From Opitutaceae bacterium (GTDB taxonomy: Bacteria > Verrucomicrobiota > Verrucomicrobiia > Opitutales > Opitutaceae), in the NCBI GenBank assembly GCA_016715765.1, contig JADJZJ010000009.1, positions 30,484-94,483 of the forward strand: a DNA stretch of 64,000 nucleotides. Reading direction: 5' to 3'. The translations under genes were made by a program, and so were the position numbers. Below the pieces are notes generated by a model that saw only the letters and a list, made by a program, of their open reading frames with translations, was not told where the DNA came from and did not search any database. Shown piece after piece: positions 5,317 to 57,153 of this stretch. Position 1 is the stretch's first letter; every line of letters begins with the position of its first letter.

Positions 5317-5321
5317 AATCA

Positions 5322-5420: not shown

Positions 5421-5428
5421 TCGACACC

Positions 5429-32416: not shown

Positions 32417-32988
32417 GGCACTCCGAGCAGTTCAAGGTTGAGGGTGATCTTGGAGGCGTCCGAACGCAGCCCGCCGACACCGGCTCCCTGATCAAAAGGC
32501 ACCACATTGGCCGATTTCACGCGACAGTAGTGCGAGCCGCTTTCCAAACGGCGGAGGAAATCGAAGAGCAGGGGGTAATCCCCCTGGACAGTCAGGGTGA
32601 AACCCACCGGGATTTTCCCCGTCTTGGCGGCCCGGCCAGGTTCGGTGGTCTGGCGCAAGTCGAGGAACTTGACCCCGGTCTCGGCTTCGAGCTTGTAAAA
32701 GTACTGCAGGTTATCGGCCAGCTGGCCGACCCGCACCAGCCGGCTGTTCGCTTCCTTGCTCGCCGCGGTGACCCGCGCGAGCTGTTCGGGCAATTGCGCG
32801 GAATTCTTGATGTTGGCGGACAGCCGCTTGCCTTCCGCGGTCTTTTCCTCGAGCTGCTGGCTGGCATCGGTGATCGCGCCGCTGCGATAATAAAGCGCAC
32901 CGGCCATGGCCAGGCAGAGGATGACCGCCACCGTGACCACGGGGTTCTTCTTGAAAAGCGCGACGACCTGTTCGTTCGAAATGGCCAT
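32413..32988 (-). CDS. pilO: PilO-like pilus assembly protein
   Basis: 191 aa: a single N-terminal TM (VVTVAVILCLAMAGALY), a coiled coil, then a ferredoxin-like C-terminus (…FTLTVQGDYPLLFDFLRRLESG…). It occupies the pilO position in the pilMNOPQ order. Confidence 0.65.
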   Translation of the reverse strand: MAISNEQVVALFKKNPVVTVAVILCLAMAGALYYRSGAITDASQQLEEKTAEGKRLSANIKNSAQLPEQLARVTAASKEANSRLVRVGQLADNLQYFYKLEAETGVKFLDLRQTTEPGRAAKTGKIPVGFTLTVQGDYPLLFDFLRRLESGSHYCRVKSANVVPFDQGAGVGGLRSDASKITLNLELLGVP

Positions 32989-32992
32989 GGGA

Positions 32993-33616
32993 TTACTTTT
33001 TCGCCGCTCCCTTCAGCTTGAGTTCGATTTCAATCGCCAGCCGGCCGGTAATGGGGATGCGGTTCAGGTTTTTCAGCACCACATCATCAATCTTGAGCAC
33101 CAGCACCGGATCGACCCGCAGTTGCTCCACATAGGTGGAGGCGTAGCCGCTCGCCATATCGGGAGCCCCGCGCACCGTGCCGCGCAGGATCAGGATGTTT
33201 TCCCGCAAATCAAAATAATCCAGGGCCACGTTCGCGGGCAGGGTCTGGCCGATGCGCAGCAGCAGGTCCGAGACGATCGGACGGGACTTGATGAAGGCGT
33301 CCACCTCGTTCAACTGCGCCTCCTCGGCCTTGAACTTGGTGAACAGGCTCACCGCCTTGTCGCTCGCCGGCTTGTCGCGGACTATCTGGGCCTCCACCTC
33401 CTCGATCTGCGAGTTGACGGCATGGAGATTCAATTCCCGGTTGCCCGTGTAGACCAGCAGCACCAGGGCCACCGCTATGGCGCCGCCGTTGACGAAGAAG
33501 GTCGTGCGCACGACCTTGGTATCCGGCAACCGCTCGAAATTGCGGAAGTTCGGATGCCAGGCCGGTGTCAGGTTGGCCGCGGCGGCGTCAGGCTTTTTTT
33601 TCAGCAGCGACAGCAT
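32993..33616 (-). CDS. pilN: PilN-like pilus assembly protein
   Basis: 207 aa: a short cytoplasmic N-terminus, a TM (GGAIAVALVLLVYTG), a coiled coil, and then …LILRGTVRG…. It overlaps the 3' end of pilM. Confidence 0.65.
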   Translation of the reverse strand: MLSLLKKKPDAAAANLTPAWHPNFRNFERLPDTKVVRTTFFVNGGAIAVALVLLVYTGNRELNLHAVNSQIEEVEAQIVRDKPASDKAVSLFTKFKAEEAQLNEVDAFIKSRPIVSDLLLRIGQTLPANVALDYFDLRENILILRGTVRGAPDMASGYASTYVEQLRVDPVLVLKIDDVVLKNLNRIPITGRLAIEIELKLKGAAKK

Positions 33617-34652
33617 TGGCAGCGGGGTTGGCGGTTTCGTGACGAACCATCAGGGAAAGCAGTCCGAACCAGCGCTGGTCGAGCACCGGCTTGGCCGCTT
33701 CGGAAACGGTGATGCCGTGGGACTCGAGCCACGGGGCGACATCCAGCTTGAGCGGGCTGATGCCCAGCTCCTTGGCAATGGTGACATCCAGCCAGCCCAG
33801 CTTGGCCGGGATGATGGAAGATATCAGCAGGCCCACGGACTGGCCGGTCTGAACCTCGTAAAAACCGATCGAGGACTGCAATTCCTTCAGCAGTTTCTTG
33901 ATGAGCAGCGGTCCCATGCCGGTGAAATCGAAGGTATTCGAATAGAAAAGCTTCCGGGCCGATTCCTCATCCTTCAATCCGAGTTCCTTCTGCACGACCG
34001 GGATCATGGATTCGAGCCCCTGCGGGATGGGCCGGGTGGCCTCCACGCCCACGCTGCTGACAATGAAGGAATTGGTCGATTCCGCACCGACTTCCAGCAC
34101 CAGGGTCGGGGTCTTGGATTTGATGAAATTCAGGTAGTTGACCAGGCCGCCCAAGGTCGAGATGGTGCCCAGTTCAAGTCGCTCCGGGTAAATGCCATTG
34201 GCCAGCAGGGCGTCCTGCGAGGAAATGATTTCCTCCGAGAGCATGCCGGCGAACAACGCTTCCTTCTGGGAGGCACCCTTGCTGACATCATAATCGGTGC
34301 CATCGGGGGCGTTCAGCACCATCGTGACGGCCTTGTCCGGTTCGACGCGGAACTGCTGGGTGAGAATTTCGCCGAAATAGGCCGGCTCCTTGAGCCGTTT
34401 CGGATCGAGCGTGATGCGGCGCAGGAACCGGCGTGAGGTGTAAACCCCGCAACTGGCGTGCACGTAACCGCTGGAAGACTTCTTGGGTTGCAGCTGTTTG
34501 AGCGCTTCCGCCAGGGCCGCCCCGTCGCCCGGAGTGCACTCCCGCACTTCCTCAATCACCAACGACCCGGTCGCAGCCGAGGTACGGGCCAGCATGAGCG
34601 CATGGTCGGTTTGTTCGACGAAATACCCTTTCGGCTTTGCTGAAAAGAGCAT
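33588..34652 (-). CDS. pilM: PilM-like actin-fold pilus assembly ATPase-like protein
   Basis: From ATG 34652 (MLFSAKPKGYFVEQTDHALMLAR…), 354 aa with an actin/HSP70-like fold pattern (…LVLEVGAESTNSFIVS…). It is the first gene of the pilMNOPQ-order operon. Confidence 0.75.
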   Translation of the reverse strand: MLFSAKPKGYFVEQTDHALMLARTSAATGSLVIEEVRECTPGDGAALAEALKQLQPKKSSSGYVHASCGVYTSRRFLRRITLDPKRLKEPAYFGEILTQQFRVEPDKAVTMVLNAPDGTDYDVSKGASQKEALFAGMLSEEIISSQDALLANGIYPERLELGTISTLGGLVNYLNFIKSKTPTLVLEVGAESTNSFIVSSVGVEATRPIPQGLESMIPVVQKELGLKDEESARKLFYSNTFDFTGMGPLLIKKLLKELQSSIGFYEVQTGQSVGLLISSIIPAKLGWLDVTIAKELGISPLKLDVAPWLESHGITVSEAAKPVLDQRWFGLLSLMVRHETANPAANAVAAEKKA

Positions 34653-34856
34653 GCTTCGGTGGGCGCGGTTTGCGGTTGGTTGTGGTGGTAGTCTGCCCGA
34701 TTTGCAACGGTGGCAGTCCCGAGGCAAAACGGCTGAGGGGCGTTAAGGACTTTTCTTAATGCAGTAGCTTGGCTGCTATGACAAGATAAAATCCGCCATT
34801 AACCCCTAGACTGCCGCCATTTACCTTTTCTTGATTTTGCCACCCGGGATGGACCA

Positions 34857-41075: not shown

Positions 41076-41107
41076 GCCCTACGCATGGGGACTCGCGGGC
41101 CGGCGGC

Positions 41108-41147
41108 AAAAACAAAAAGCCCCGCAACCCAATTCGGGTCACGGGGC
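41108..41147 (-). terminator. rho-independent terminator downstream of rpsT
   Basis: The minus-strand RNA is GCCCCGUGACCC-gaau-UGGGUUGCGGGGC followed by UUUUUGUUUUU. Confidence 0.8.
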
Positions 41148-41174
41148 CAATGAATGAATGCGCCGGGCGCGGAC

Positions 41175-41438
41175 TTACTTCTTCGCGGCGAAATGCTTGG
41201 CCACCTGGGCCTTGGCGCGGCTGGCGGCATTGCGATGCACCACCCCCGACTTGACGGCCTTGTCCATGGCGGAGGCATAGGCCGAGGCAACCGTGGCCGC
41301 AGCGGCGGCATCCCCGGCCTTGACGGCGGCATCGAGCTTCTTGTGCAGCGTCTTGAGGCGGGATTTGACCGTCTTGTTACGGTCGGTCAGGCGAACCGAT
41401 TTGCGGGCGGCTTTGATCGCGGATTTGGTGTTGGCCAT
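41175..41438 (-). CDS. rpsT: 30S ribosomal protein S20
   Basis: MANTKSAIKAARKSVRLTDRNKTVKSRLKTLHKKL… (87 aa), a classic bS20. Confidence 0.95.
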   Translation of the reverse strand: MANTKSAIKAARKSVRLTDRNKTVKSRLKTLHKKLDAAVKAGDAAAAATVASAYASAMDKAVKSGVVHRNAASRAKAQVAKHFAAKK

Positions 41439-41563
41439 GGTCGGATAAGGATTGGAAGCCGGTCAAAGACTCAAACGCCCGCTGGAGAGTCAACGGTATT
41501 TTCATTCTTCCGCTTTCTGCTTTGCCCGGCGGCCCTTCCGTCCACATTGCTGGTGCAGCCCTG

Positions 41564-43150
41564 ATGAATCTCCGGACCCGCTTCAACCTGCTGCTGGTGT
41601 TACTGTGCCTGGGCCTCGCGGCGAGCCTCCTGGCGCTCAGGTTTCACGAAAAGCGCGAAACCCGGCTGATCCTCCACGAGATCCGTGAACAGCGCAGTCA
41701 AATGCTGGACCGACTGATCGAGTTGAGCGGCCGCTCGCTCCGGACGTTTACGCGGGAATATTCGCTGTGGACGGAAATGGCCGATTTTGTGGCCAAGCCG
41801 GCGGTGGACAAGGCCTGGACCCACATTAACATCGACAGCAGTCTCGCCACGTTCCAGGCCGAGGCCGCCTGGGTTTTCAAGCCCGACGGCCGGTTGTTTT
41901 ACGCCGCCGTGCTGGCGAATGAACCGCCGGTGCCAATCACCCTGCTCCCGCCCCCCGACCAACTCGCGGAGCGGCTGAACCGGGACAAGGTCTGCCATTT
42001 TTTCATCAAGGCCGGCTCCGAGCTCTACGAAATCCGGGGATCGGTCATCGTGCCGTCGGAAGACATGAACCGGTCCACCCCGCCCCGCGGGTTTTTCCTG
42101 ACGGCCCGCCACTGGGGGGCGCAGCATCTGGCAGGCCTGGCCGAACTCAGCCAGGCCACGATCGAGTTGGCTGACAGCGCCGAAAGCCGCACCCCGGCGG
42201 TGGAGCAGAACTCGATTCATCTCTTCCGTCATCTGCCCGACTGGGAGGGAAAAACCATCAGCGGGCTGCACCTGCGCTACGACTCCGCGGAACTCAGCCA
42301 GGTCAGTGAAACGGACGTCTGGGAATCCGTGATTTTCTTCGCCTTCGGTTCCCTCTCCATCCTCCTCGTGGTTTATTTCGCCTACCGCTGGGTCCTGCGT
42401 CCCGTCGGCGGGATCAGTGAAAGCCTGGCCACCGGCAACCTCGCCCCGCTCGAGCCCTACTACGACGAGCGTTCCGAACTCGGCCGCGTCGCTAACCTCG
42501 TGCGGTCCTCGTTTCATGACCGCGAGAAACTGCGCGACACCATGCAGGAGCGGGCCCAGCTGAGCCGGGACCTGCACGACGGCCTCATCCAGGCCCTTTA
42601 TGCGATCGGCATGAACCTCGCTAGCATCGGCCCCCTGCTGCGGCGCAAGCCGGAACAGGCGGAAACCCAGCTGGACCAGGCCCGCACCGAACTCAATGCC
42701 TCCATCCGTGAACTGCGCAGTTTCATCACCAGGCTGGAGCCGGCCGACGCCGAGAAAAAGGATTTTGGCAAGGCCGTGCAGCTGCTCGTGAAATTCATGC
42801 AGACGGCGCACCCCACGACCTTCAAGCTGGAGATGGACGATGGACTGGCCTCCGGCCTGGCCGTCGAACGCAGCACCCAGCTGCTGTACATCGTGCGCGA
42901 AGCCCTGAGCAACGCCCTGCGCCACGGCCGGGGCGACACGGTCACCCTCCGGCTGCAACCCGCGGGGGATCTGGCGGTGTTCAGTGTGCATGACAACGGC
43001 CGGGGATTCGATCCCGCCGCCCCCCGCCAGGGCGGACACGGCCTTGACAACATGACCGAACGCGCCCTCCAACTTGGCGGCACATTGCAGATCAGTTCAT
43101 TGCCAGGCCAAGGCACACTCGTCACCGTCCGCTTTCCCCATTCCCTATGA
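41564..43150 (+). CDS. sensor histidine kinase (HisKA_3/NarX-type) with ~230-aa periplasmic domain (HK1)
   Basis: From ATG 41564. TM1 is FNLLLVLLCLGLAASLLAL and TM2 is VIFFAFGSLSILLVVYFAY, followed by a HAMP-like linker. The H-box is RDLHDGLIQALYAIGM and the ATPase region is NALRHG…DNGRGFD…GHGLDNMTERA. Its stop overlaps the RR start (ATGA). Confidence 0.85.
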   Translation: MNLRTRFNLLLVLLCLGLAASLLALRFHEKRETRLILHEIREQRSQMLDRLIELSGRSLRTFTREYSLWTEMADFVAKPAVDKAWTHINIDSSLATFQAEAAWVFKPDGRLFYAAVLANEPPVPITLLPPPDQLAERLNRDKVCHFFIKAGSELYEIRGSVIVPSEDMNRSTPPRGFFLTARHWGAQHLAGLAELSQATIELADSAESRTPAVEQNSIHLFRHLPDWEGKTISGLHLRYDSAELSQVSETDVWESVIFFAFGSLSILLVVYFAYRWVLRPVGGISESLATGNLAPLEPYYDERSELGRVANLVRSSFHDREKLRDTMQERAQLSRDLHDGLIQALYAIGMNLASIGPLLRRKPEQAETQLDQARTELNASIRELRSFITRLEPADAEKKDFGKAVQLLVKFMQTAHPTTFKLEMDDGLASGLAVERSTQLLYIVREALSNALRHGRGDTVTLRLQPAGDLAVFSVHDNGRGFDPAAPRQGGHGLDNMTERALQLGGTLQISSLPGQGTLVTVRFPHSL

Positions 43151-43962
43151 AATCCATGACTTCAACCATCCGGGTCCTGCTGGTCGATGACAGCGCTCTC
43201 GTCCGCCGCGGCGTGAGATCGGTCATCGAGGCGCACAGCGAGCAAGGCGCCATCGAGGTGGTGGGCGAGGCCGCGAGCGCTGCCGCCGCGATGACTGAAG
43301 TCCTGCGTCTCCGGCCCGATGTGGTGCTGCTCGACCTGCGCCTGCCCGACGATTCCGGCATCAATGTCTGCCGCCGCATCCACACTGAACTACCCGCCAC
43401 CCGCGTGCTCGTGCTGACCTCATTCGTGGACGACAACCTGGTCTACAACGCCGTCATCGCTGGGGCCCACGGCTATCTCATGAAGGAAGTGGACCCGCCC
43501 ACCCTGCTCGAAGCAATTGCCAAGGCGGCTTCCGGCCAGTCCATTCTCGCTCCCGACATCACGGAACGCGTGATGAAGATGCTGCGGTCCGGCAATACCG
43601 GCAAGGAAGGCAGCAACGACCTCTCCACCCTGTCCAACCAGGAACGACGGGTTCTCGCTTGCGTGGCCGAGGGCCTCACCAACAAACAGACCGGCGAACG
43701 CCTCAATCTCAGCGAGAACACGGTGAAAAACTACCTGATCAACGTGTTTGAAAAACTGCAGGTCAAACGCCGCTCCCAAGCCGCCGCGCTCTATGTCGAA
43801 CAGGTCGGCCGGCCCGTGGCTTCCGACCTGCCCCGGGCAAGTAAGGTCCGGCTCGGCGGCCCGATTTGTACCGGACCGGAATGCGAGCTGATGCCAGCGA
43901 CTGGCGTTTTGGTTCCGGCAGGCAGCGCGGGTGATCCCGGGATCACCCTAGCCTACAAATAG
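43147..43962 (+). CDS. NarL/FixJ-family response regulator (REC + LuxR HTH) with ~50-aa C-terminal tail (RR1)
   Basis: IRVLLVDDSALVRRG…VVLLDLRLPDDSG…, then LSNQERRVLACVAEGLTNKQTGERLNLSENTVKNYLINVFEKLQVKRR. The tail GRPVASDLPRASK… parallels the RR2-to-prepilin junction. Confidence 0.85.
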   Translation: MKSMTSTIRVLLVDDSALVRRGVRSVIEAHSEQGAIEVVGEAASAAAAMTEVLRLRPDVVLLDLRLPDDSGINVCRRIHTELPATRVLVLTSFVDDNLVYNAVIAGAHGYLMKEVDPPTLLEAIAKAASGQSILAPDITERVMKMLRSGNTGKEGSNDLSTLSNQERRVLACVAEGLTNKQTGERLNLSENTVKNYLINVFEKLQVKRRSQAAALYVEQVGRPVASDLPRASKVRLGGPICTGPECELMPATGVLVPAGSAGDPGITLAYK

Positions 43963-43976
43963 GCCTGAATAGGCCT
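43960..43976. promoter_or_regulatory. candidate operator: two TAGGCCT copies 10 nt apart (AATAGGCCTGAATAGGCCTATT) in the AT-rich spacer upstream of HK2
   Basis: TAGGCCTGAA recurs at 48906-48915, upstream of the second pilin-like operon. AATAGGCCTATT is a perfect palindrome. The first TAG is also the RR1 stop codon. Confidence 0.35.
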
Positions 43977-44129
43977 ATTGTGGCAAACCTATTATATTTA
44001 GCTGACGGCCCTAGGCGTGGGCCAAAATAAGGGGTATTTTCCTCATGATGCACTTCCGTTCGCACCCAGAGAACACCCCGGTTGGTTCTACCGAACTTCA
44101 TATCAGCTCCAACTAGGCTGCATGCTGGC

Positions 44130-45742
44130 ATGAGCGTAAAACTGAAATTCGCGTCGCTGTTGGGACTGTCCTTGATGGTCTTTGTCTCGGCCATGTGGGC
44201 GCTGCAGTGGCTGGACCGGCGCGAAACCGCCCGTAATGCCACCCTGTTGCATCGCTCACGTGAGCAACAGCTGGACCACTGGCTCACCGCCACCGGTGTT
44301 TCGCTGCGCAATTTCACCGATGAAGGGCCCAGGTCGCCGCGGCCCGCGTGCGCACCGATCCCACGCAATTCACCCTGCCGGAAAACACCGAGGGCATAGC
44401 CGCGGCAAACGTCACCGGTTACTGGGTGGTGCGAAGCAGCGGCACGGTCGTGCAGGTTGAGGCCGCGCATGGCCTGGGGCATCCCCCCGTATCCGCCGCC
44501 AGCATCGCATTATGGACGGCCAATCCCCCGACCCACCGCTTCTTCAGCGAAAGCGAGGCCGGGCTGCTGGAAATTTGCGTGGAGCCGATCACTCCGCAGG
44601 AAGGCCGTTCCCCCTGGGGCTGGTTTCTCGTCGCTCGGCGATGGGATGAAAACCACCTGAAGGTGCTGACCAATCTCACCGAGGGCCGCGTCACCCTGGA
44701 CCTGCATCCCGCCGCCACCCTGACATCGGCCACCGTGCACACGCGTCTGCTGCCGGACTGGCAGGGACGTCCGCTGCGCAGTCTGCAGGTCAGCTATCCG
44801 CCGGGGATTGAAGCTGTCCCGCCCTGGCCCGGCCTGCCCGGCCTCGCGGTGTTCTTCGGCTTCGGCCTCCTGCTGCTCTCCGGCCTGGCCCTGAGCCTGC
44901 ACCGCTGGGTCCTGCGTCCCCTGGATCTCATCGGCGCCAGTCTCGCCCTGGACAGCGCCGCCCCGCTCGCGCCGCTGCTGGCCGGACAGGATGAATTCGC
45001 CGGCACCGCCCGCCGGCTCGAGGCCTCGTTCACCCAGCGCGACGCCCTCAAAAGGGAGATCGAGGAACGCCGGAGCATCGCCACCGCCCTGCTGGCGGCG
45101 GAAAACGACCTGCGCCGCACCATGGACGAGCGCACCCGCCTCGGCCGCGACCTGCACGACGGCGTGATCCAGGCGCTCTATGCGACGGGCATGGGCCTCG
45201 CCGGCATCCGCGCCCTGCTCCCCCCCGGGCAGAATGAAGCCTCCGAACGGCTCAACCAATGCCGGGCGACGCTCAATGAGATCATCCGCGACGTGCGCAA
45301 CTTCATCACCGGGATCGAGCCCGAGGCGCTCCGGCAGCAGAGCTTCACGCAGGCGGTGCAGGCGCTGCTCGAATTCATGCAAAGCATCAGCCCGAGTTCG
45401 ACCCAGGCCGAGATTGACGAACACCTGGCCGGCCAGCTGACCCTGAACCAGCGGGCCAATGCGCTGCACATCATGCGCGAGGCCGTGAGCAATGCCCTGC
45501 GCCACGGCGCCGCCGAGCACATCCAGGTCTCGTTCACCCGCACGCCCGAGGGCGACGCCGCCCTCGACATCAGCGACGACGGCCTGGGCTTCACCCCGGG
45601 AGCCGACACCACCAACCGGGGCCGCGGCCTGGAAAATCTCGCCCAGCGCGCCGCCGACCTCGGCGCCATTTTCACCCTGCGATCGGAACCGGGCCAGGGC
45701 GCCCGCCTGCGTTTCGTCTTCACCCTGCCGCCAAAGTCATGA
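44130..45742 (+). pseudogene. sensor histidine kinase paralog (HK2), frame-disrupted near 44322-44333 as assembled
   Basis: Frame 0 from ATG 44130 encodes MSVKLKFASLLGLSLMVFVSAMWALQWLDRRETARNATLL…SLRNFTDE, parallel to the HK1 N-terminus. The rest lies in the frame of 44348 (…YWVVRSSGTVVQV…, TM2, RDLHDGVIQALYATGM, NALRHG…DDGLGF…GRGLENLAQRA). The switch falls at GAAGGGCCCAGG. Confidence 0.75.
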
Positions 45743-46854
45743 AATCCATTCCCACCCAAGGCATCCGCATCCTGCTGGTCGAGGACAGCATCCTGGTCCG
45801 CGAAGGCATCCGGATCGTGCTCGAGTCCGCCGATCCGCCGGACCTGCACGTCGTCGGTGAAGCCGGCTCCAATGCCGAGGCCATTGCCGCCTGCGACCGG
45901 CTGAAACCCGCCGTCGTGCTGCTCGACATCCGGCTCCCCGACGGCAACGGCTTCACGGCCTGCCGCGAAATCCTCCTGCGCCAGCCCGACACCCGGGTCA
46001 TCATCCTCACCTCGCATTCGAGCGACACGTTCGTCTATGAGGCGGTCAATGCCGGCGCGCACGGCTACCTCATGAAGGAAGTGGATCCCGCCGGCCTCGT
46101 GCAGGCCGTTCGCGATGTCGCCGCCGGCCAGTCCATCCTCGCCCCCGACGTCACCGACCGGGTGCTCAAGATGCTGCGCGGCAACGGCGCCGGCCGCAGC
46201 GCGGAGGGCGATCTCGCCAGCCTCTCCCATCAGGAGCGGCGCGTCCTGGCCTGCGTGGCCGAGGGCCTCACCAACAAGCAGGCGGGCGAACGCCTCGGCC
46301 TGAGTGACAACACGGTGAAAAACTACCTGATCAACGTTTTCGAAAAGCTGCAGGTCAAACGCCGCGCGCAGGCCGCCGCCCTTTATGTGTCGCAGGCCGG
46401 GCGGCCCAATGCCGGGGCGATGTCGCTGCCGGATGCCACCAAGTCGGGTTTCACCCTGGTCGAGGTCATGTTCGCCGCCATCGTCCTGGCCCTCGGCATC
46501 GTCACCGCCATCCTCACGCTCCAGCGCGGCCTGCAGGCCATCGACACGGCGCGGAACTACACCTACGCGGGCCAGCTCATGCAGAGCGAGATGGAGAATC
46601 TGCGGCTGAAAAACTGGGACCAGCTCGAGACGCTGCAGCAGGCCGGCCCCGTCCTGGTCACGGCCGATCCCACGGCCACTTCCACCCGCACCACCTTCGA
46701 CTGCACCCGCACCATCAGGACCGTGAAAACCGACATGAAGGAAATCCTCCTCGTCTCGAGCTGGCGCGGCTACGACGGCCGCGCCCACACGGCCCGCGTC
46801 GTCACCCGCTACGGCAAGAGCGGCCTCTATGACTATTTCTACACCGCCCACTGA
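45739..46854 (+). CDS. NarL/FixJ-family response regulator (RR2) whose ORF continues in frame, with no stop, into a prepilin-type protein
   Basis: REC (IRILLVEDSILVREG…VVLLDIRLPDGNG) and LuxR HTH (LSHQERRVLACVAEGLTNKQAGERLGLSDNTVKNYLINVFEKLQVKRR) are followed by AGRPNAGAMSLPDATKSG|FTLVEVMFAAIVLALGIVTAIL… up to the stop at 46854. Confidence 0.7.
   Translation: MKSIPTQGIRILLVEDSILVREGIRIVLESADPPDLHVVGEAGSNAEAIAACDRLKPAVVLLDIRLPDGNGFTACREILLRQPDTRVIILTSHSSDTFVYEAVNAGAHGYLMKEVDPAGLVQAVRDVAAGQSILAPDVTDRVLKMLRGNGAGRSAEGDLASLSHQERRVLACVAEGLTNKQAGERLGLSDNTVKNYLINVFEKLQVKRRAQAAALYVSQAGRPNAGAMSLPDATKSGFTLVEVMFAAIVLALGIVTAILTLQRGLQAIDTARNYTYAGQLMQSEMENLRLKNWDQLETLQQAGPVLVTADPTATSTRTTFDCTRTIRTVKTDMKEILLVSSWRGYDGRAHTARVVTRYGKSGLYDYFYTAH
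46420..46854 (+). CDS. GspI/PilV-like minor pseudopilin (module A, protein A1); possible independent translation from an internal in-frame ATG
   Basis: The leader is MSLPDATKSG, followed by FTLVEVM (Glu at +5) and a hydrophobic helix. It is a paralog of 48970-49434, sharing SEME.LR..W and the C-terminal GLYDY.YT. Confidence 0.6.
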   Translation: MSLPDATKSGFTLVEVMFAAIVLALGIVTAILTLQRGLQAIDTARNYTYAGQLMQSEMENLRLKNWDQLETLQQAGPVLVTADPTATSTRTTFDCTRTIRTVKTDMKEILLVSSWRGYDGRAHTARVVTRYGKSGLYDYFYTAH

Positions 46855-47437
46855 TGCCGTGACGGGTCACCGTCGCCCCCACGCCTTCACCCTCGCCGAG
46901 GTGATGGTCGCCGCCTCGCTGGCGACCCTCGTGCTGGCCGGGGTGATGAGCGCGTTTCTCTTCATCGGCCGCACCAGCTTCAGCACCGGCAACTACAGCG
47001 AGATGGAGGCCCAGACCCGCCGGGCCCTCGACCGCTTTGCCGGCGATGTGCGCATGGCCACCGGCATCCGGTGGAACAGCAGCCAGAGCCTCACCCTCAC
47101 CCTCCCCACCGCCTCCAACGCGACCACCCAGGTCACCTACGCGTACGATCCGCTCTCCGTCGGGGCCACGGCCCGCACGTTCTACCGTGTCGTCGGCGAC
47201 GCCGCCTCCCCGCTGCCCCGCGAGGCCCTGGTGCGCGGGGTGGCCACGGATTTTTCCTTCCAGCGCTTCAAGCTCGAGCAGAACGGCGTCATCGCGAATG
47301 CCGCCGCCAACGATCTGGAGACCAAACTGCTCCAGGTCTCACTCCGTCCCGTCCGGACGGGTGTCACCACGGTCGCCAGCAGCCAGCGCACCCTTTCCGC
47401 CCGTTATCTGCTGCGCAACAAGCGCGTCAGCCAATGA
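46829..47437 (+). CDS. GspJ/PilW-like minor pseudopilin (A2)
   Basis: …RRPHA|FTLAEVMVAASLATLVLAGVMSAFLFIGR…; a paralog of 49427-49963. An alternative GTG start at 46859 gives a 9-aa leader like that of B2. Confidence 0.7.
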   Translation: MTISTPPTDAVTGHRRPHAFTLAEVMVAASLATLVLAGVMSAFLFIGRTSFSTGNYSEMEAQTRRALDRFAGDVRMATGIRWNSSQSLTLTLPTASNATTQVTYAYDPLSVGATARTFYRVVGDAASPLPREALVRGVATDFSFQRFKLEQNGVIANAAANDLETKLLQVSLRPVRTGVTTVASSQRTLSARYLLRNKRVSQ

Positions 47438-48858
47438 TGTCCCGCTCCAAGCATTCACCGCGGCCTGGTCCGCACCTGCTCCCGGCGCCCACCCGGCACG
47501 GGTCGATGCAACCTGCGCGGGGCTCCGTCCTCATTGTCGCCCTGCTGCTCTCCGCCATCATCGCCCTGATGCTGGGCAGCTACCTGAATCTCAACCTGAG
47601 TTCCACCCGGCTTGCCAAGCGCTCCTTCCACAGCACCGCCGCCCTCAACCTCGTCGAGGCGGGCGCGGAGGAGGCGGTCTGGTCCTTCAACCGCGTCACG
47701 GCGGGCCACAACGATGGCTGGACGGATTGGAACACCGACGGCACCTCGGCCTGGAAAAAACTGTCCGGCTTCGACTTCGGGGCCAACACCTCCGGGTGGA
47801 CCAAGGTCTACGTCACCAGCACCAATCCCCCCGCCCGCACCAACCCCAAGGTCGTCGCCCTGGCCTCGGTCAATCCGCCCGACGGTCCGCCCGTCACCCG
47901 CATGATCGAGGTCGTCCTCCGCCGCCGCTCCTATTTCTCCAACGGCCTCGTCGCGAAGGACCGGATCGTCTTCAGCGGCGCCAATGCGAGCGTGGACAGC
48001 TGGAACTCGGATCCGGACGGGGATCCCGCCACTCCGCCGGTGGACTACAGCGCCGAGGTCCGCCGCGACCAGGGGAGCGTGGCCAGCATGAATGTGGCGA
48101 ACACCGCCATGCTCGTGAACCAGGCGGACATCTGGGGCTATGTCTACACCGGCGGCTCCCAGCCGCAGGTCGGCAGCAACGGCAGTATCCGCGGTGCGGA
48201 CACGCCGGAGGACGTGCGGATTGACGCGAACCGCATCACCACGGACTTCAACGCCGCGCTGCCCGCCGTGGCCGCCCCGGCGGACGGCATCACGATCGCG
48301 AACATCGGTTCCACCCTGGGCACCGCCGGCCTGGCGACCCGCTGGCGCTGTGCGGCGATCAACCTGAGCGGCAACCAGACGCTCACCATCCGGGGCGATG
48401 TGACCCTCATCCTCACCGCCACCTCCGGCATGAATGCGATCAGTGTCACCGGCAATGCCGGCATCATTGTCCCCGCCGGCTCCACCTTCACCGTCTACAC
48501 CGAGGGCAACGTCCGGATCGCCGGCAACGGCATCGGCAACGCCAACATCCAGCCCCGGACCCTGCAATTCTGGGGCACCCACCCCACGGCCGGCGGCCAG
48601 GAAATGCAAATCGCCGGCAACGGGGCGCTGCGCACCGTCGTCTATGCCCCCAATGCCTCCGTGACCATCAACGGCAACGGGAACGTGCTGGGCTCCGTGG
48701 TCGCCAACGACATCACCCTCGTGGGCAACGCGGCGTTTCACTATGACGAGTCGCTCGCCAATTCCGGAGAGGACACGCCCTACGGCATCACCAAGTGGCG
48801 CGAACTCAGCACCGCCGAGAGCCGCGCCGCCTACGCCGAGGTCTTCGCGGGCTGGTGA
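47434..48858 (+). CDS. GspK/PilX-like large pilin-like protein with C-terminal Gly/Asn-rich beta-solenoid-like repeats (A3)
   Basis: From ATGATG at 47434, overlapping the A2 stop. The N-terminus is …ARGSVLIVALLLSAIIALMLGSYL, with no Glu+5. The C-terminus is …IAGNGALRTVVYAPNASVTINGNGNVLGSVVANDITLVGNAAFHYDESL…WRELS…AGW. It is a paralog of B3 and B4. Confidence 0.75.
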   Translation: MMSRSKHSPRPGPHLLPAPTRHGSMQPARGSVLIVALLLSAIIALMLGSYLNLNLSSTRLAKRSFHSTAALNLVEAGAEEAVWSFNRVTAGHNDGWTDWNTDGTSAWKKLSGFDFGANTSGWTKVYVTSTNPPARTNPKVVALASVNPPDGPPVTRMIEVVLRRRSYFSNGLVAKDRIVFSGANASVDSWNSDPDGDPATPPVDYSAEVRRDQGSVASMNVANTAMLVNQADIWGYVYTGGSQPQVGSNGSIRGADTPEDVRIDANRITTDFNAALPAVAAPADGITIANIGSTLGTAGLATRWRCAAINLSGNQTLTIRGDVTLILTATSGMNAISVTGNAGIIVPAGSTFTVYTEGNVRIAGNGIGNANIQPRTLQFWGTHPTAGGQEMQIAGNGALRTVVYAPNASVTINGNGNVLGSVVANDITLVGNAAFHYDESLANSGEDTPYGITKWRELSTAESRAAYAEVFAGW

Positions 48859-48890
48859 CTTTCCGTCCGGACCCGGCGGGACGCTCCCAT

Positions 48891-48915
48891 CAGGCCTACC
48901 GGCACTAGGCCTGAA
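48891..48915. promoter_or_regulatory. candidate operator upstream of module B (CAGGCCTACCGGCACTAGGCCTGAA)
   Basis: It shares TAGGCCTGAA with 43960-43969 and contains a second AGGCCT copy 15 nt upstream. It lies 55-80 nt before the B1 start. Confidence 0.3.
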
Positions 48916-48969
48916 ATACGGACCCGTACGCCTCTAACATTGCGGGCGGCTGGCTGGCATGATGGACGC

Positions 48970-49434
48970 ATGCCCAATCCATTTCGCACCCGCCGGCGCC
49001 GCGAGGGCGGCTTCACGATCGTCGAGGTCGCCATGGCCAGCTTCATCATGGCCTTCGGCATCGCCACCTCGATCATCGCGATGCAGTCCGGCTACAAGCA
49101 CATCGATCTCGCCCGCGGCACCACGCTCGCGTCCCAAATCATCCAGAGCGAGATGGAGCGCCTGCGCATGATGAGCTGGACGATGATCAATGCGCTGCCG
49201 GCCAACGAGACCTTTGACGGCGCCACGTTCTTCAGCGAGCACGCCAACATCGAGGACATTTACACCATCACCCGCACGGTCACGGACGACAGCACCCGCC
49301 CGGGCGAGATCAAGAACATCAACATCTCCGTCCGCTGGCGCACCTACGATCAGCGCTGGCATCAACGCTCCTTCAACGCGATCTACGCAAAAAACGGCCT
49401 TTATGACTATTACTACACTGTTGCCCATGAGTAA
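48970..49434 (+). CDS. GspI/PilV-like minor pseudopilin (B1)
   Basis: MPNPFRTRRRREGG|FTIVEVAMASFIMAFGIATSIIAM…QSEMERLRMMSW…GLYDYYYTVAHE. Confidence 0.8.
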   Translation: MPNPFRTRRRREGGFTIVEVAMASFIMAFGIATSIIAMQSGYKHIDLARGTTLASQIIQSEMERLRMMSWTMINALPANETFDGATFFSEHANIEDIYTITRTVTDDSTRPGEIKNINISVRWRTYDQRWHQRSFNAIYAKNGLYDYYYTVAHE

Positions 49435-49963
49435 GCCCGCCCGCCGCCGGGGCTTCACCCTGGTGGAGGTCATGATCGGGGCGGCGCTCTCGACCTTCAT
49501 CCTGGCCGGGGTCCTCTCGACCTTCCTCTTCCTCGGGCGCAGCGGCGCCAACATGCAGAATTACTCCGACATGGAGACCCAGGCCCGCCGGGGGCTGGAA
49601 ATTTTCGCGGAAGACGTGCGCCAGGCCAGCGCCATCACCTGGAACAGCGCCGAGTCAGCCACGATTGTGGTGAACTCCGCCAGCGTCACCTACGCCTACG
49701 ACAGCAGCACGCGCATCTTTTCCCGCAATGGAGCTAATCTCATCACGGGGGTGACCCCGGGCAGCTTCGCCTTCTCGGCCTTCAATGTCGCCGGGACGGA
49801 GATGCCGCTGTCCACCGCGGCGGAGCGTTCCGCCGCCAGTTCCAGCACGAAGCAGCTCCAGATCACCCTCGAGGCCACGCGCACGAACACGACCGTCGTC
49901 GCCGCGACGAATACCGTGCTCTCCGCCCGCTTCATCCTTCGCAACAAGATCGTCACCGCCTGA
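49427..49963 (+). CDS. GspJ/PilW-like minor pseudopilin (B2)
   Basis: MSKPARRRG|FTLVEVMIGAALSTFILAGVLSTFLFLGR…. It overlaps B1 by 8 nt. Confidence 0.8.
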   Translation: MSKPARRRGFTLVEVMIGAALSTFILAGVLSTFLFLGRSGANMQNYSDMETQARRGLEIFAEDVRQASAITWNSAESATIVVNSASVTYAYDSSTRIFSRNGANLITGVTPGSFAFSAFNVAGTEMPLSTAAERSAASSSTKQLQITLEATRTNTTVVAATNTVLSARFILRNKIVTA

Positions 49964-49974
49964 GCGGCGCTCCC

Positions 49975-51456
49975 ATGAAGACCAACCCTTCGTTCCGTCC
50001 CCTCCCTGCGACCCGCAGTCTGCGCCTGGCACAGACGAGGGGTTCCGTGCTCATCGTCTCGATGATCCTGTGCGCCGTCATCGGCATCTCGCTCGCAAGC
50101 TACCTGCAGCTCGGTCGCACCGGCCTGTTCATCTCCAACCGGGCCCTCTACAGCAACGCCGCCATGAACCTTGCCGAGAACGGGCTCGAGGAGGCGATGT
50201 ATGCCATCAACAAAACGGTGGCCGACAGCGGCTACAATTGGGCGGACAACGGCTGGACCACATCAAGCCCCGTGCCCACCGGCGATGCCCGGCGGGTGTT
50301 GCCCGCGTCCGGCACCTACAACTTCGACCAGGGTGTCACCGGCACCGTGCGCGTCTACGTGGTCGGCTATTCCGGCACCGCTCCCCGCGCCCTGGCCCGT
50401 TCCACCGTCAACCTCGGCTCAGGCCGGACCATTGAAAAGTGGGTCGAGGTCCGGATGCGCAAAACCTCCCGGTTCGCCAACGGCCTGGTGGCCAAGGATT
50501 CCATCCGCTTTGCCGGCAACAACGCCTCGGTGGACAGCTGGCACTCCAAGAAAAACGACGACGGCACCCCGCGGGCCTCGCCCGTGCCCTACAGTTCCGC
50601 CGTGGATCATGACAAGGGCTCGGTCGGCTCCATCTCCGTTTCCGTGGACGCCGTTCTCGTCCAGAACGCCGACATCTGGGGCTATGCCGCCACCGGCGGC
50701 GCGATCCCGGCCGTGGGCAGCAACGGCCTGGTCGGACCCTATGGCACGACGAGCGGACAAATGGACATGTCCCGCGTCTCCACGGACTTCTCCGCCAGCT
50801 TCGATCCGGTTTCGCCGCCCACGACCGCGGGTTACACCGACATCGCCAACATCACGGCCAACACGATCCTGCCGCGGGCAACTGATGCTCCTGCTTCGGA
50901 TGGAAAATATTATTATACCACGGGCCAGATCAGCTTTAACAACAAGTACCTTACGATTCAGAAAAAGACCGTCGGGTCACCCGCCGTGCAGGTCGTGATC
51001 ACCCTGACCAACACCACCACCTCGATCAGCATCGGCGGTGGTTCCGGTGCCGTCAATATCGAGTCGGGCTCCCAGCTCGAACTTTATGCCCCGGGCAACA
51101 TCTCCATCGCCGGCAACGGCGTCATGAACGGGGGCACCACCGCCGCCACCGCCAATCTGCCGGAGGCTTTTCAAATCTGGGGCACCAAGACCTCCGGCGT
51201 GCAGGACATCTCCATCGCCGGCAACGGCGTCCTCAGCGGCGTCGTTTACGTTCCGCAGGGTTCGGTCAAGATCAACGGCAACGGCGACGTGTGCGGCTCG
51301 GTCGTGGCCAATGACATCACCGTGGTCGGCAATGCCCTGTTCCATTACGACGAATCCCTGGGCGACTTCGGCGGCAACAATCCCTACCGCGTCTCCCTCT
51401 GGCGCGAGATCACCTCGGCCGCCGGCCGCAGCGCCGTCACCGTCCTGAATTGGTAA
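49975..51456 (+). CDS. GspK/PilX-like large pilin-like protein with Gly/Asn-rich repeats (B3)
   Basis: …QTRGSVLIVSMILCAVIGISLASYL…, …IAGNGVLSGVVYVPQGSVKINGNGDVCGSVVANDITVVGNALFHYDESLGD…WREITS…TVLNW. Confidence 0.8.
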   Translation: MKTNPSFRPLPATRSLRLAQTRGSVLIVSMILCAVIGISLASYLQLGRTGLFISNRALYSNAAMNLAENGLEEAMYAINKTVADSGYNWADNGWTTSSPVPTGDARRVLPASGTYNFDQGVTGTVRVYVVGYSGTAPRALARSTVNLGSGRTIEKWVEVRMRKTSRFANGLVAKDSIRFAGNNASVDSWHSKKNDDGTPRASPVPYSSAVDHDKGSVGSISVSVDAVLVQNADIWGYAATGGAIPAVGSNGLVGPYGTTSGQMDMSRVSTDFSASFDPVSPPTTAGYTDIANITANTILPRATDAPASDGKYYYTTGQISFNNKYLTIQKKTVGSPAVQVVITLTNTTTSISIGGGSGAVNIESGSQLELYAPGNISIAGNGVMNGGTTAATANLPEAFQIWGTKTSGVQDISIAGNGVLSGVVYVPQGSVKINGNGDVCGSVVANDITVVGNALFHYDESLGDFGGNNPYRVSLWREITSAAGRSAVTVLNW

Positions 51457-51616
51457 GGGCGGCAGAACCACCACCGGCACGGAAGTCCGACGATGATTGG
51501 ACGGGCCGTCGGCACTCATCCTCAAATCCCCGGCTGCCCGCCGCCAGCATTCGCTTCCCGCCACAAATAATCATTCCGCTCGTGTCTGTAAAAGTCCTCC
51601 CCCCGGGACCGAACGC

Positions 51617-53119
51617 ATGCATCGCCGATTTCCCATGATCAGGAGGCCTTCGCCAGTTCCCGTCGCTCCCGTCCGATTCGCGCCCCTCCCCGCCGCCTCG
51701 AAGGGCTCCGTCCTGATCGTCGCGATGGTCCTTTCCGCGGTCATCAGCGTCTCGCTGGTCAGCTATCTGCAGATGAGCCGGACGAGCCTGCAGATTTCCA
51801 ACAGCGCCTTCTACCATAATGCGGCCATGAATCTGGCCGAGAACGGCCTGGAGGAAGCCCTGTACGCCATCAACAAGACCGTGGCCGACAGCAGCTACGA
51901 CTGGGCGGCCAACGGCTGGGACACCGCGAGCCCGGTACCCGCCGGAGATGCCCGGCGCCGGCTGCCTTCGGCCAGCACCACCTACCAGTTCGACCAGAAC
52001 GTCACCGGCTTCGTGCGCGTTTATGTGCTGGGCTACAACAGCGCCGCCCCCCGGGCCGTCGCCCGTTCCACCATCACGCTCAGCACCGGCCATATCATCC
52101 AGAAATGGGTCGAGATCCGGCTGCGCAAGGCCTCCAGGTTTGCCACCGGGCTGGTCGCCCGGGAATCCATCAGTTTTTCCGGCAACAACGCCTCGGTGGA
52201 CAGCTGGCACTCGAGGAAAAACGACGACGGCACGCCGCGGGCCACTCCGGTCGCCTACAGTTCCGCCGTCGATCATGACCGGGGCTCCGTGGGCTCGCTT
52301 TCCGTCGGCGTGAATGCCGTCCTCGTCCAGAATGCCGACATCTGGGGCTATGTCGCCACCGGCGGCACCATGCCTTCCGTCGGCAGCAACGGACTCGTCG
52401 GGCCTTATGGCACGGCCAGCGGTGAAATGGACCTGGGCCGCATCTCCACGGATTTCACCGCGAATTTCGAGCCGGTGGCGCCGCCCGCCAACGGCGGCGA
52501 CAACATCGGCGACATCACGACCAACCTCAATCTGCCCCGGGCCGCCGATGCCCTCGCGACAGATGGGAAATACTACTACACCGTCGGCCAGATCAATTTT
52601 AACAACAAGACGCTCGCCATTGCGAAAAAGACCGCCGCCTCGCCCCCCGTGCACGTCGTCATCACCCTCACCAATCCGGCCACGAGCATCAATATCGGCG
52701 GCGGCAGCGGCGCGCTCAACATCGAGCGCGGCTCGCAGCTGGAGCTGTTCGCCCCCGGCGACATCAAAATCGCCGGCAACGGGGTGATGAACGGCGGCAG
52801 CACCTCCGCCGCGGCGAACCTGCCGGAGTACTTTCAAATCTGGGGCACCCGGACCACCGGGGTGCAGGACATCCAGATCGCGGGCAACGGCGTGCTCAGC
52901 GGTTTGGTCTACGCCCCCAATGGTTCGGTAAAAATCAACGGCAACGGCGATGTCAGCGGTTCCGTCGTGGCCAACGACATCACCGTGGTCGGCAATGCCG
53001 CCTTCCACTACGACGAGGCCCTGGGCGATTACGGCGGGAACAACCCCTTCCGCGTCGCGCTCTGGCGCGAGATCAGCTCGGCCGCGGACCGCAACGCCAT
53101 CACCGTGCTGGACTGGTGA
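51617..53119 (+). CDS. GspK/PilX-like large pilin-like protein, tandem paralog of B3 (B4)
   Basis: From ATG 51617 (MHRRFPMIRRPSP…SKGSVLIVAMVLSAVISVSLVSYL). It is collinear with B3 along the whole length, roughly three-quarters identical by eye. Confidence 0.8.
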   Translation: MHRRFPMIRRPSPVPVAPVRFAPLPAASKGSVLIVAMVLSAVISVSLVSYLQMSRTSLQISNSAFYHNAAMNLAENGLEEALYAINKTVADSSYDWAANGWDTASPVPAGDARRRLPSASTTYQFDQNVTGFVRVYVLGYNSAAPRAVARSTITLSTGHIIQKWVEIRLRKASRFATGLVARESISFSGNNASVDSWHSRKNDDGTPRATPVAYSSAVDHDRGSVGSLSVGVNAVLVQNADIWGYVATGGTMPSVGSNGLVGPYGTASGEMDLGRISTDFTANFEPVAPPANGGDNIGDITTNLNLPRAADALATDGKYYYTVGQINFNNKTLAIAKKTAASPPVHVVITLTNPATSINIGGGSGALNIERGSQLELFAPGDIKIAGNGVMNGGSTSAAANLPEYFQIWGTRTTGVQDIQIAGNGVLSGLVYAPNGSVKINGNGDVSGSVVANDITVVGNAAFHYDEALGDYGGNNPFRVALWREISSAADRNAITVLDW

Positions 53120-53136
53120 GTGGGCGTAGCACGAAT

Positions 53137-53196
53137 GCAGGAGCGGCTTTATGCCGCGAACGAACGCGTAACATCGCGGCGTAAAGCCGCTCCTAC
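53137..53196. repeat. REP doublet (GCAGGAGCGGCTTTATGCCGCGA … TCGCGGCGTAAAGCCGCTCCTAC)
   Basis: Inverted units at 53137-53159 and 53174-53196, of the same family as the single unit at 29703. Confidence 0.7.
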
Positions 53197-53237
53197 AGTT
53201 GAACAAGCGCAGGCAGGCACTGGTTGAAAATAGCTAG

Positions 53238-53709
53238 TTTTGGGGCCGGTAAGCCGGATTATGTTCCTCCCGCTTGCGCGGGATTCGGCCGTCATTTCTC
53301 TCAACGTCCGCCTTGCGACAGACCTGCCCTCCGCAGCTCCGCTTGCGCGGAGCGAAGGAGGGTGCGGCATACCCGTGGCTATGGGACGGGCCGTCCAGCC
53401 ACCTATTTTGCCTTGCACCGGAAGGGGTTTTTCGTGCCGCCAACGTCGCCGTTGGCGCGGTGGGCTCTTACCCCACCTTTTCACCCTTACCCTGAGCGAG
53501 CCGCCTTGCGGCGGATCGAACCGGGCGGTTTGTTCTCTGTGACACTGTCCGTCACCAAGCCTTGACGCTTGGCGCCCGCACTTGCGGTGAAGCTCGTGCG
53601 GCATCCTGCCCTGCGGTGTCCGGACTTTCCTCTCCGAACTTCCAATACGGGCGCGGCGTTACCCGCGCCTTGGGATCAAAGAACTCGGAGCGACGACCAG
53701 GCCCCAAAA
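53238..53709 (-). ncRNA. rnpB: RNase P RNA, bacterial type A
   Basis: The minus strand carries GGAGAGGAAAGUCCGGACAC, GGGUAAGGGUGAAAAGGUGGGGUAAGAGCCCACCGCGCC, GGUGCAAGGCAAAAUAGG and ACAUAAUCCGGCUUACCGGCCCC. P1 forms from GGGGCC (5') and GGCCCC (3'). There is no credible ORF. The ends are accurate to about +/-5 nt. Confidence 0.9.

Positions 53710-57153
<3,444 letters not shown>

Follow-up and report, generated by a model that had tools for sequence, protein, structure and literature searches.

Introduction

Conserved minor pilins make up the tip complexes of type IV filaments, with a subunit lacking Glu5 as the cap, and adhesive domains are grafted onto modular pilins (PMC10191384). A single bacterium can possess several alternative minor-pilin sets (PMC7541494), and in Pseudomonas aeruginosa feedback runs from the minor pilins to a two-component system (PMC5979040). 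Here, we describe a 64,000-nucleotide stretch of an Opitutaceae (Verrucomicrobiota) metagenome-assembled genome (assembly GCA_016715765.1, contig JADJZJ010000009.1, positions 30,484 to 94,483; hereafter the window, in whose own numbering all positions are given). It encodes two sets of pilin-like proteins, modules A and B, in the order I-like, J-like and K-like gene, together with two pairs of sensor histidine kinases (HK1 and HK2) and response regulators (RR1 and RR2). We take these gene triads to be a variant of minor-pilin tip modules, and their unusual part is a regulator-prepilin fusion: RR2 and the I-like pilin of module A, A1, are encoded as one polypeptide, RR2::A1.

The closest described arrangements are GspI-GspJ-GspK of type II secretion systems (T2SS) and PilV-PilW-PilX of the type IVa pilus (T4aP). 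They share with the Opitutaceae triads the order of an I-type and a J-type pilin followed by a large cap without Glu5, as well as the class III signal sites; the I-like proteins match PilV and GspI, and the predicted J-like fold matches chains taken to be XcpW. Unlike these systems, the triads contain no H-type pilin, have no adjoining machinery genes, occur in up to three tandem sets per locus and give profile hidden Markov model (HMM) scores that all lie under the family cut-offs. Their cap is not a homologue of GspK or PilX, and a predicted DUF7305 beta-solenoid replaces the GspK alpha-domain. Several paralogous priming/tip sets per genome, thought to be condition-dependent, are known from Myxococcus xanthus (PMC7541494, PMC8833165), but those sets comprise four minor pilins and the non-pilin PilY1 and are not translationally coupled to two-component genes. 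Two-component control of a minor-pilin operon by FimS-AlgR, with pilins influencing the kinase, has been described for fimU-pilVWXY1Y2E (PMC5979040). AlgR, however, is a LytTR-type regulator encoded elsewhere, whereas the regulators considered here are of the NarL type, lie in the same operon and in one clade are fused to a pilin.

PilA-PilB-PilC of Streptococcus sanguinis also form a three-pilin tip set, with an I-like subunit and pilins carrying bulky grafted adhesion domains (PMC10191384, PMC9934059). The grafts are lectin and vWA domains there and a beta-solenoid here, the former organism is monoderm and the latter diderm, and the likeness lies in the make-up of the set, not in demonstrated sequence homology. 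The N-terminal ~70 residues of the K-like proteins are weakly similar to those of the Caldicellulosiruptor tapirins (NF051896). Tapirins combine such an N-terminal region with a beta-helical binding domain and are encoded beside a type IV pilus (T4P) locus. Against this likeness, the best score is 25.8 bits for a cut-off of 600, and no tapirin structure was among the fold matches of the K-like protein. If RR2::A1 is cleaved, a polytopic membrane protease would free a DNA-binding protein, as in regulated intramembrane proteolysis of the RseA/RseP type and in Notch processing by presenilin; prepilin peptidases are, like presenilin, GxGD-type aspartyl proteases. Unlike in those cases, the putative cleavage would be a constitutive maturation at a class III site rather than a signal-induced event, and the freed protein would be a phospho-accepting response regulator.

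A Response Regulator and a Minor Pilin in One Polypeptide

No stop codon separates RR2 from A1, and positions 45739-46854 form a single in-frame open reading frame (ORF) of 371 aa. The receiver (REC) and GerE domains occupy ~45739-46383, followed by a linker (46384-46449) with the signal motif G|FTLVEV at its end (G at 46447, F at 46450) and a PilV/GspI-like domain reaching to 46854. The first-pass annotation of the window had placed the pilin modules directly behind paralogous kinase-regulator pairs. The link with two-component genes is real and general, being found for 93 of 111 triads (see below), but RR2 is not separate from A1.

The fusion recurs in 37 protein clusters (364-374 aa, 63-100% identity) from JGI, ENA, Logan and NCBI assemblies, and is also present in the related loci L003 and L004 and in L085, a near-identical independent assembly. 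An assembly artefact, suspected since HK2 and the secretin gene of the window are frameshifted, was rejected in view of the 37 clusters and the independent assembly, which sets the fusion apart from the HK2 frameshift. Residue -1 is G in 33 of the 37 fusions and A in the other 4, while F+1 and E+5 are invariant, and the acceptor motif VVLLDIRLPDG occurs in all fusion sequences listed. Mean pairwise identity is 72.6% in the regulator part and 72.7% in the pilin part but 24% in the linker, which is 14-25 aa long, with many R and P residues close to the site. In the window copy an ATG (46420) lies inside the linker; yet 19 of the 37 linkers lack any M, V or L codon and only 2 contain Met, so that a separate pilin start cannot be general.

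The fusion is present in all loci with a duplicated HK-RR pair, where its pilin is the sole I-type gene of the module. The fusion extends across a deep clade, within which the identity of the module-B K-like proteins falls to 44-45% (L078 and L081). Because the RR and I genes of a more distant relative are separate and overlap (GTGA), the fusion most plausibly arose through loss of a stop codon. Prepilin leaders remain in the cytoplasm, on whose side of the membrane cleavage takes place after Gly-1; those known are 6-26 aa long, as against 229-239 aa for the "leader" of the fusions (PMC4471445). The topology of RR2::A1 would thus be that of a prepilin whose leader is a folded regulator plus a linker of normal leader length. 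All sequence features required of a prepilin peptidase substrate are present in A1, A2, B1, B2 and the 37 fusions; judged by these features, the peptidase would cut RR2::A1 at the G|F site. No description of regulator-prepilin fusions or of transcription factors released by prepilin peptidase was found in the literature, most subscription journals lying outside the coverage of the search.

Gene Map and Paralogy of the Modules

The genes and elements of the two modules and of the adjoining two-component systems are the following:
41564-43150, plus strand: HK1, sensor histidine kinase with an extracytoplasmic CHASE4 domain, HisKA_3 and HATPase_c (Pfam)
43147-43962, plus strand: RR1, free response regulator of the NarL/LuxR type with REC and a GerE helix-turn-helix (Pfam); its start overlaps the HK1 stop
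43960-43977, RR1-HK2 gap: TAGGCCT boxes (TAGGCCTGAATAGGCCTA), candidate regulator-binding site upstream of the HK2 operon
44130-45742, plus strand: HK2, CHASE4/HisKA_3 kinase, paralogue of HK1, split by a 1-nt frameshift near 44325
45739-46854, plus strand: RR2::A1, one 371-aa ORF with REC, GerE and N_methyl in one protein (Pfam)
46420-46854, plus strand: pilin part of A1 as listed in the first-pass annotation, I-like
46829-47437, plus strand: A2, J-like (GspJ/PilW-like) pilin with the class III site A|FTLAEV at 46883, paralogue of B2
47434-48858, plus strand: A3, pilin-like modular protein in the K position, 474 aa, DUF7305; its start overlaps the A2 stop (ATGA)
48892-48938, upstream of module B: operator/promoter-like element composed of an inverted repeat, GAAAT and then GCCTCTAAC
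48970-49434, plus strand: B1, I-like (PilV/GspI-like) pilin, G|FTIVEV
49403-49963, plus strand: B2, J-like pilin, G|FTLVEV, starting at ATG 49403 or 49427
49975-51456, plus strand: B3, DUF7305 modular pilin-like protein in the K position, 493 aa
51617-53119, plus strand: B4, tandem duplicate of B3, 500 aa, 74% identical to it

The ORF list bears out the earlier placement of modules A (46420-48858) and B (48970-53119) and their description as paralogues of identical gene order. BLASTP identities were far beyond chance: 42% for A1/B1 (E 3e-30), 42% for A2/B2 (E 8e-39), 40% for A3/B3 (E 6e-104) and 41% for A3/B4, with 74% between the tandem copies B3 and B4. RR1 and RR2 share 63% and HK1 and HK2 36% identity. 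The I-J-K order is the same in every triad seen in ~80 related genomes. The B3/B4 duplication is also present in L003, L006 and L007 and absent from L004.

A six-frame motif scan of the 64-kb window found only four class III signal motifs, those of A1, A2, B1 and B2; the sites read KSG|FTLVEV in A1 and GG|FTIVEV in B1. The I-like mature domains measure ~134-140 aa and thus combine the class III signal with the small size (~130-150 aa) of PilV and GspI. B3 is 100% identical to the NCBI protein IPN11_05650 of the Opitutaceae genome.

The I-like and J-like Pilins

A1, taken with a short leader, matched nearly the whole PilV profile TIGR02523 (E 1.6e-8, 35.1 bits; cut-off 52.2) and scored 22.5 bits with GspI TIGR01707 (cut-off 44.35). 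For B1 the E values were 3e-4 (GspI) and 4e-4 (PilV). Among 17 diverse relatives of the I-like proteins, PilV matched 15, GspI 13, ComGE 6 and XpsI 5, and all PilV and GspI matches were sub-threshold. The identification of the I/PilV-like pilin holds as a resemblance to PilV and GspI, but not as family membership.

The GspJ and PilW models gave no match to the J-like proteins at E <= 0.01, and the best HMM match was PRK10557, with 22.9 bits for a cut-off of 120. In the set of 14 J-like proteins, PRK10557 ("prepilin peptidase-dependent protein") matched eight and HpsC seven. B2 exceeds the Pfam cut-off for N_methyl (28.7 bits), and its homologues carry the label "PilW" in JGI and NCBI. The AlphaFold model of B2 (pLDDT 81) has a pilin fold with a 55-residue N-terminal helix and a beta-sheet. 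Its sole matches in the PDB at E < 0.01 were chains A, C and G of the XcpV-XcpW complex from P. aeruginosa, 5BW0 (E 8.6e-4 to 8e-3, TM 0.49-0.59, probability 1.00). By their length (152-159 residues) rather than by the entry annotation, these chains are taken to be XcpW, the GspJ orthologue, and B2 is accordingly modelled as a GspJ-type fold. The J/PilW-like reading therefore stands on the side of structure, but not on that of the GspJ and PilW models. As all I-type and J-type HMM matches lie below the cut-offs, we regard the I-like and J-like proteins as remote relatives and not as family members. Sequence profiles of the I-like, J-like and K-like families, compared with all PDB sequences, returned nothing or only the generic N-terminal helix. 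Solved minor-pilin structures are mostly N-terminally truncated.

The first-pass annotation had also raised the possibility that these ORFs belong to the TIGRFAMs families Verru_Chthon cassette A-D, which we take to be TIGR02596, TIGR02598, TIGR02599 and TIGR02600 (only TIGR02598 and TIGR02599 appeared in the search output). Sub-threshold matches do exist: cassette B to 8 of the 17 I-like proteins, with a best E of 1.8e-4, and cassette C to 1 of the 14 J-like proteins (E 1.8e-3). Nevertheless, B1 and A1 scored 17.0 and 20.4 bits with cassette B for a cut-off of 51.4, cassettes A and D gave no match at E <= 0.01 to the seven window proteins (all three K-like ones included) or to the I-like and J-like sets, and the modules have three genes, not four. 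Membership in these families is refuted by the scores, and we regard it as highly improbable.

The K-like DUF7305 Proteins

The K-like proteins belong to DUF7305 (PF23981), with 68.3 bits for A3 (E 1e-18), 60.1 for B3 and 60.9 for B4 against a gathering threshold of 27. Their homologues carry precomputed PF23981 assignments and the NCBI name "DUF7305 domain-containing protein", and the family comprises 6084 representative clusters at E <= 1e-3. As described earlier, these are proteins of 474-500 aa with a hydrophobic N-terminus and without an acidic residue at +5. The N-terminus reads RG|SVLIV in A3 and B3 and KG|SVLIV in B4; in the alignment G23 and S24 are nearly invariant, and so is the whole stretch R-G-S-(V/L)-L-I-V. 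The Gly/Asn-rich repeats and the conserved C-terminus are likewise seen in the alignment (...IAGNG...INGNGDV.GSVVANDITVVGNAAFHYDE...WRE...W).

Their assignment as K/PilX-like did not hold. The GspK HMM did not match the K-like proteins, PilX_N gave a non-significant E of 0.32 with their N-termini (11.5 bits; cut-off 25.5), and none of GspK, PilX and ComZ appeared among the K-like fold matches; DUF7305 was found instead. The N-terminus of A3 showed weak ComGG and tapirin matches, and the tapirin model NF051896 scored 14.6-25.8 bits against its cut-off of 600, over the N-terminal ~65-70 residues only (E 3e-6 to 8e-3). In the AlphaFold model of B3 (pLDDT 75), a helix of 62 residues (22-83) is followed by a four-stranded sheet (105-163) and a beta-solenoid (~297-478); both the pilin-like N-terminal helix and the solenoid foreseen for the K-like proteins are thus present in the model. 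The K-like protein is predicted to be a pilin module with a grafted beta-solenoid domain. No paper on "DUF7305" or "Verru_Chthon cassette" was found, again with most subscription journals outside coverage.

Synteny with Two-Component Genes

In a search of one genome per GTDB species, relatives turned up in 153 species, and 80 loci were kept, their ORFs being labelled by BLASTP with the window proteins; all 80 come from Opitutaceae/Opitutales or other Verrucomicrobiota. For the 111 triads with enough upstream sequence, the upstream neighbour was a response regulator in 48 cases, a kinase in 15, another triad in 30 and something else in 18, so that the same CHASE4 kinase/NarL-type regulator genes stand at the head of the arrays containing 93 of the 111. 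The synteny with two-component genes, for which the first-pass annotation had called for a genome-wide look, is thereby borne out. Recurrent layouts are HK-IJK-HK-RR-IJK, HK-RR-IJK-IJK and, in the clade of the window, HK-RR-HK-RR::IJK-IJK(K). The gene junctions overlap (ATGA, GTGA), which implies translational coupling.

In 14 loci from Lacunisphaera, Didemnitutus and related bacteria (L019, L030, L037, L039-L041, L045, L046, L050, L052, L054, L062, L063 and L079), the first triad directly follows the CHASE4 kinase with no regulator between them, at locus positions ~1500-6500, and a second HK-RR pair and triad come next. In L019, L037 and L041 the I gene begins at the kinase stop or no more than ~30 nt from it, and in L030 the distance is at most ~180 nt. 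TAGGCCT, the candidate operator discussed below, was found in none of the 16 K-to-HK gaps of these kinase-led loci. In L001 (GCA_016794785.1; 5362-8502, minus strand), genes for a VPDSG-CTERM protein and a reprolysin/PKD metalloprotease stand between two triads, and the second triad keeps the GGCCTA-N7-TANGCC inverted repeat upstream (8869-8887).

HK1 matched CHASE4 (E 1e-11), HisKA_3 (E 1.5e-15) and HATPase_c (E 1e-14) in Pfam; HK1 and the C-terminal part of HK2 conform to this kinase type, and HK2 is intact in L003, L004 and L085. Both regulators are of the NarL/FixJ type, with Response_reg at E ~1e-24 and GerE at E 1e-16 to 1e-18. In the window, HK2 is split into an N-part (44130-44327) and a C-part (from 44348) by a 1-nt deletion in a G run (44320-44330). 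At this place L085, the near-identical independent assembly, reads GGGG instead of GGG and encodes an intact HK2 of 537 aa. By this comparison, the frameshift is most likely a homopolymer assembly error and HK2 not a pseudogene. In L085 itself, a JGI assembly, HK1 (1836-3263) is called at 475 aa and lacks the HATPase_c match; the two assemblies of the population hence differ in which kinase gene is disrupted, a pattern compatible with assembly errors. RR1 has 271 aa in the window as against 221-232 aa in L003, L004 and L085, its C-terminal tail being ~40-50 aa longer. The extra tail (43810-43962, ...VRLGGPICTGPECELMPATG...) is not conserved and may reflect a lost stop codon or a further indel in the assembly.

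A Candidate Operator

The window contains 8 copies of the heptanucleotide TAGGCCT where 2.2 would be expected, and 5 of these matches lie within two short gaps: three at 43960-43977 upstream of HK2 and the remaining ones at 48892-48912 upstream of B1. The latter form the inverted repeat AGGCCTA-N7-TAGGCCT, which is followed by a conserved GAAAT and then by GCCTCTAAC (48930-48938). Three chance matches are located inside an ORF at 8928-13493 (plus strand) which encodes a 1521-aa protein with pyruvate:ferredoxin oxidoreductase domains (POR_N, PFOR_II, POR, 4Fe-4S, TPP_enzyme_C) and is unrelated to the pilin modules.

In the related loci, TAGGCCT is present in 9 of 10 RR-to-HK gaps (4.4 per kb) and 17 of 32 K-to-I gaps (3.4 per kb), the overall rate being 0.08 per kb, and it was found upstream of the first kinase in 0 of 44 cases. 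Each of 15 distinct related loci contains a single GGCCTA-N7-TANGCC, which in all of them lies 60-130 bp upstream of the I gene of a triad. The predicted recognition helices of RR1 and RR2 are identical (NTVKNYLINVFEKL), and hence both regulators could bind the element. From its placement we consider TAGGCCT a candidate operator that likely marks control sites for the HK2 operon and module B, and not for HK1. A promoter/terminator consensus scan of 41000-53800 gave matches at chance level.

Filament Machinery and Neighbouring Genes

The window ORFs that were scanned include neither a major pilin nor an ATPase, a platform protein or a prepilin peptidase, the other tested ORFs being housekeeping genes; this agrees with the first-pass annotation. 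That annotation had also placed pilMNOPQ about 7 kb upstream of the modules. A secretin gene and four upstream ORFs do lie at 29999-34727 (minus strand), with the secretin borne out by Pfam Secretin (E 1e-47) and the PilQ model (E 3e-36), but the labels M, N, O and P rest on weak matches (PilM 23 bits, GspM-like 22 bits). The secretin gene (29999-31892, minus strand) is split into two overlapping frames, an N-part with STN and Secretin_N (30498-31892) and a C-part with Secretin (29999-30739), which may be due to an assembly indel or a real frameshift.

Directly downstream of module B, on the opposite strand, lies the gene of the bacterial class A RNase P RNA (53238-53664, minus strand; Rfam RF00010, 165 bits, full length); the ORFs listed within it are spurious. 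Between the two, 20 nt past the B4 stop, a long and near-perfect G+C-rich hairpin without a T run (GGAGCGGCTTTATGCCGCG...CGCGGCGTAAAGCCGCTCC; 53140-53193) may be a terminator or an RNA-stabilising structure common to the convergent B4 and rnpB.

Proposed Function and Alternative Explanations

We think it fairly probable that the modules are regulator-controlled, exchangeable tip/adhesin modules with a peptidase-cleavable regulator-pilin fusion. By analogy with GspI-J-K and PilV-W-X, each of two exchangeable minor-pilin sets would form the priming/tip complex for a filament resembling a type IV pilus, the small pilin being PilV/GspI-like, the second one GspJ/PilW-like and the third member a large cap without Glu5. 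Genes for the major pilin, the ATPase and the peptidase of this filament would lie outside the window, and the divergent PilM-to-PilQ-like cluster lies ~7 kb upstream. The cap, a pilin module with the DUF7305 beta-solenoid, would probably be an adhesive or ligand-binding tip that supplies binding specificity. The sets would be co-transcribed with the CHASE4 kinase/NarL-type regulator pairs and probably controlled by them through the TAGGCCT boxes. In RR2::A1, the regulator would stay in the cytoplasm in leader position, with the pilin helix spanning the membrane and the pilin head in the periplasm; a peptidase cut at G|F would free a soluble regulator and a mature pilin and so tie regulator supply to pilin processing. 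More tentatively, and with considerable doubt, we propose for the whole clade that a NarL-type response regulator serves as a giant cytoplasmic prepilin leader, and that its release at G|F gates transcription of the tip modules via the TAGGCCT operators according to pilin-processing capacity.

Several observations weigh against this picture. Every HMM match of the I-like and J-like proteins to these pilin families falls below the curated cut-off, and the modules have no H-type (GspH/FimU) pilin. No homology could be detected between the K-like protein and GspK, PilX, PilY1 or ComZ; residues 190-280 of the B3 model are of low confidence, and the best K-like fold match is a marginal one, to a DUF3494 ice-binding-type beta-helix (Foldseek, E 1.6e-3, TM 0.24/0.44), which is taken as support for a beta-solenoid only and not for a function. 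Of the genome itself, the 64-kb window was covered, and the filament served may be a T4P or a T2SS-like one. We know of no demonstrated cleavage of a substrate in which a folded domain of ~215 aa precedes the site. As to the overall interpretation given by the first-pass annotation, the pilin-type I-J-K modules, the cap without Glu5 and the two-component link stand, while GspK/PilX homology and Verru_Chthon membership do not.

RR2::A1 might never be cleaved and act as a ToxR/CadC-like membrane-anchored transcription factor, its pilin domain being an anchor, a periplasmic sensor or a dock for the J-like protein, the K-like protein or the kinase, and module A being a signalling device. A cytoplasmic DNA-binding domain, one transmembrane helix and a periplasmic domain are indeed the topology of known bitopic regulators. 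Moreover, a kinase of P. aeruginosa responds to minor pilins and PilY1 (PMC5979040), and a prepilin with a leader of ~230 aa is neither described in PMC4471445 nor was it found in the literature searches. A pure anchor, however, needs none of the residues G/A -1, F+1 and E+5, which all 37 fusions kept while the linker fell to 24% identity; moreover, no fused locus has an I-type gene in module A other than the fused pilin, whose conservation equals that of the unfused I-type pilins, and we judge an uncleaved fusion to be unlikely. If the fusion were functionally neutral, that is a tolerated stop-codon loss between coupled genes in which internal initiation supplies the pilin or cleavage has no regulatory effect, the account would depart from the proposed release of a regulator solely in denying the regulatory consequence of cleavage. 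One mutation suffices to fuse the overlapping separate genes of the relatives (GTGA), and the window copy offers the linker ATG at 46420. The linker codons nevertheless speak against internal initiation as a general route, and the fusion persists across the deep clade marked by L078 and L081 and in every locus with a duplicated HK-RR pair; neutrality seems quite improbable to us.

The remaining alternative concerns the filament and not the fusion. The triads could form the I-J-K tip of a T2SS-like or other non-pilus type IV filament that extrudes substrates, for example a polysaccharide-secretion pseudopilus. The sole significant structural match of the J-like model was to chains taken to be the T2SS pseudopilin XcpW, the GspI and XpsI models match the I-like set, and HpsC, which matches half of the J-like proteins (7 of 14), is a hormogonium polysaccharide-secretion pseudopilin. 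On the other hand, PilV is the best and commonest I-like match (35 bits versus 22 for GspI), the nearest machinery is of the PilQ type, the ~300-aa beta-solenoid cap does not resemble GspK, and T4aP typically come with multiple exchangeable sets (PMC7541494). A pseudopilus tip is in our view an unlikely role for the triads, though one compatible with the data.

Concluding Remarks

Minor-pilin tip complexes set when a type IV filament starts growing and what it sticks to. The Opitutaceae loci are a compact and conserved case, in which alternative tips with a large uncharacterised DUF7305 cap (a family of thousands of members) are combined with sensor-regulator pairs that probably select the modules and with a candidate operator. 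If RR2::A1 is processed, the substrate range of prepilin peptidase, so far marked by leaders of 6-26 residues, would widen to include a folded domain of ~215 residues with a linker, and pilin maturation would be tied directly to gene regulation. The gating of tip-module transcription by such release, if true, would introduce a proteolytic release step within two-component signalling, together with a new class of prepilin peptidase substrates.

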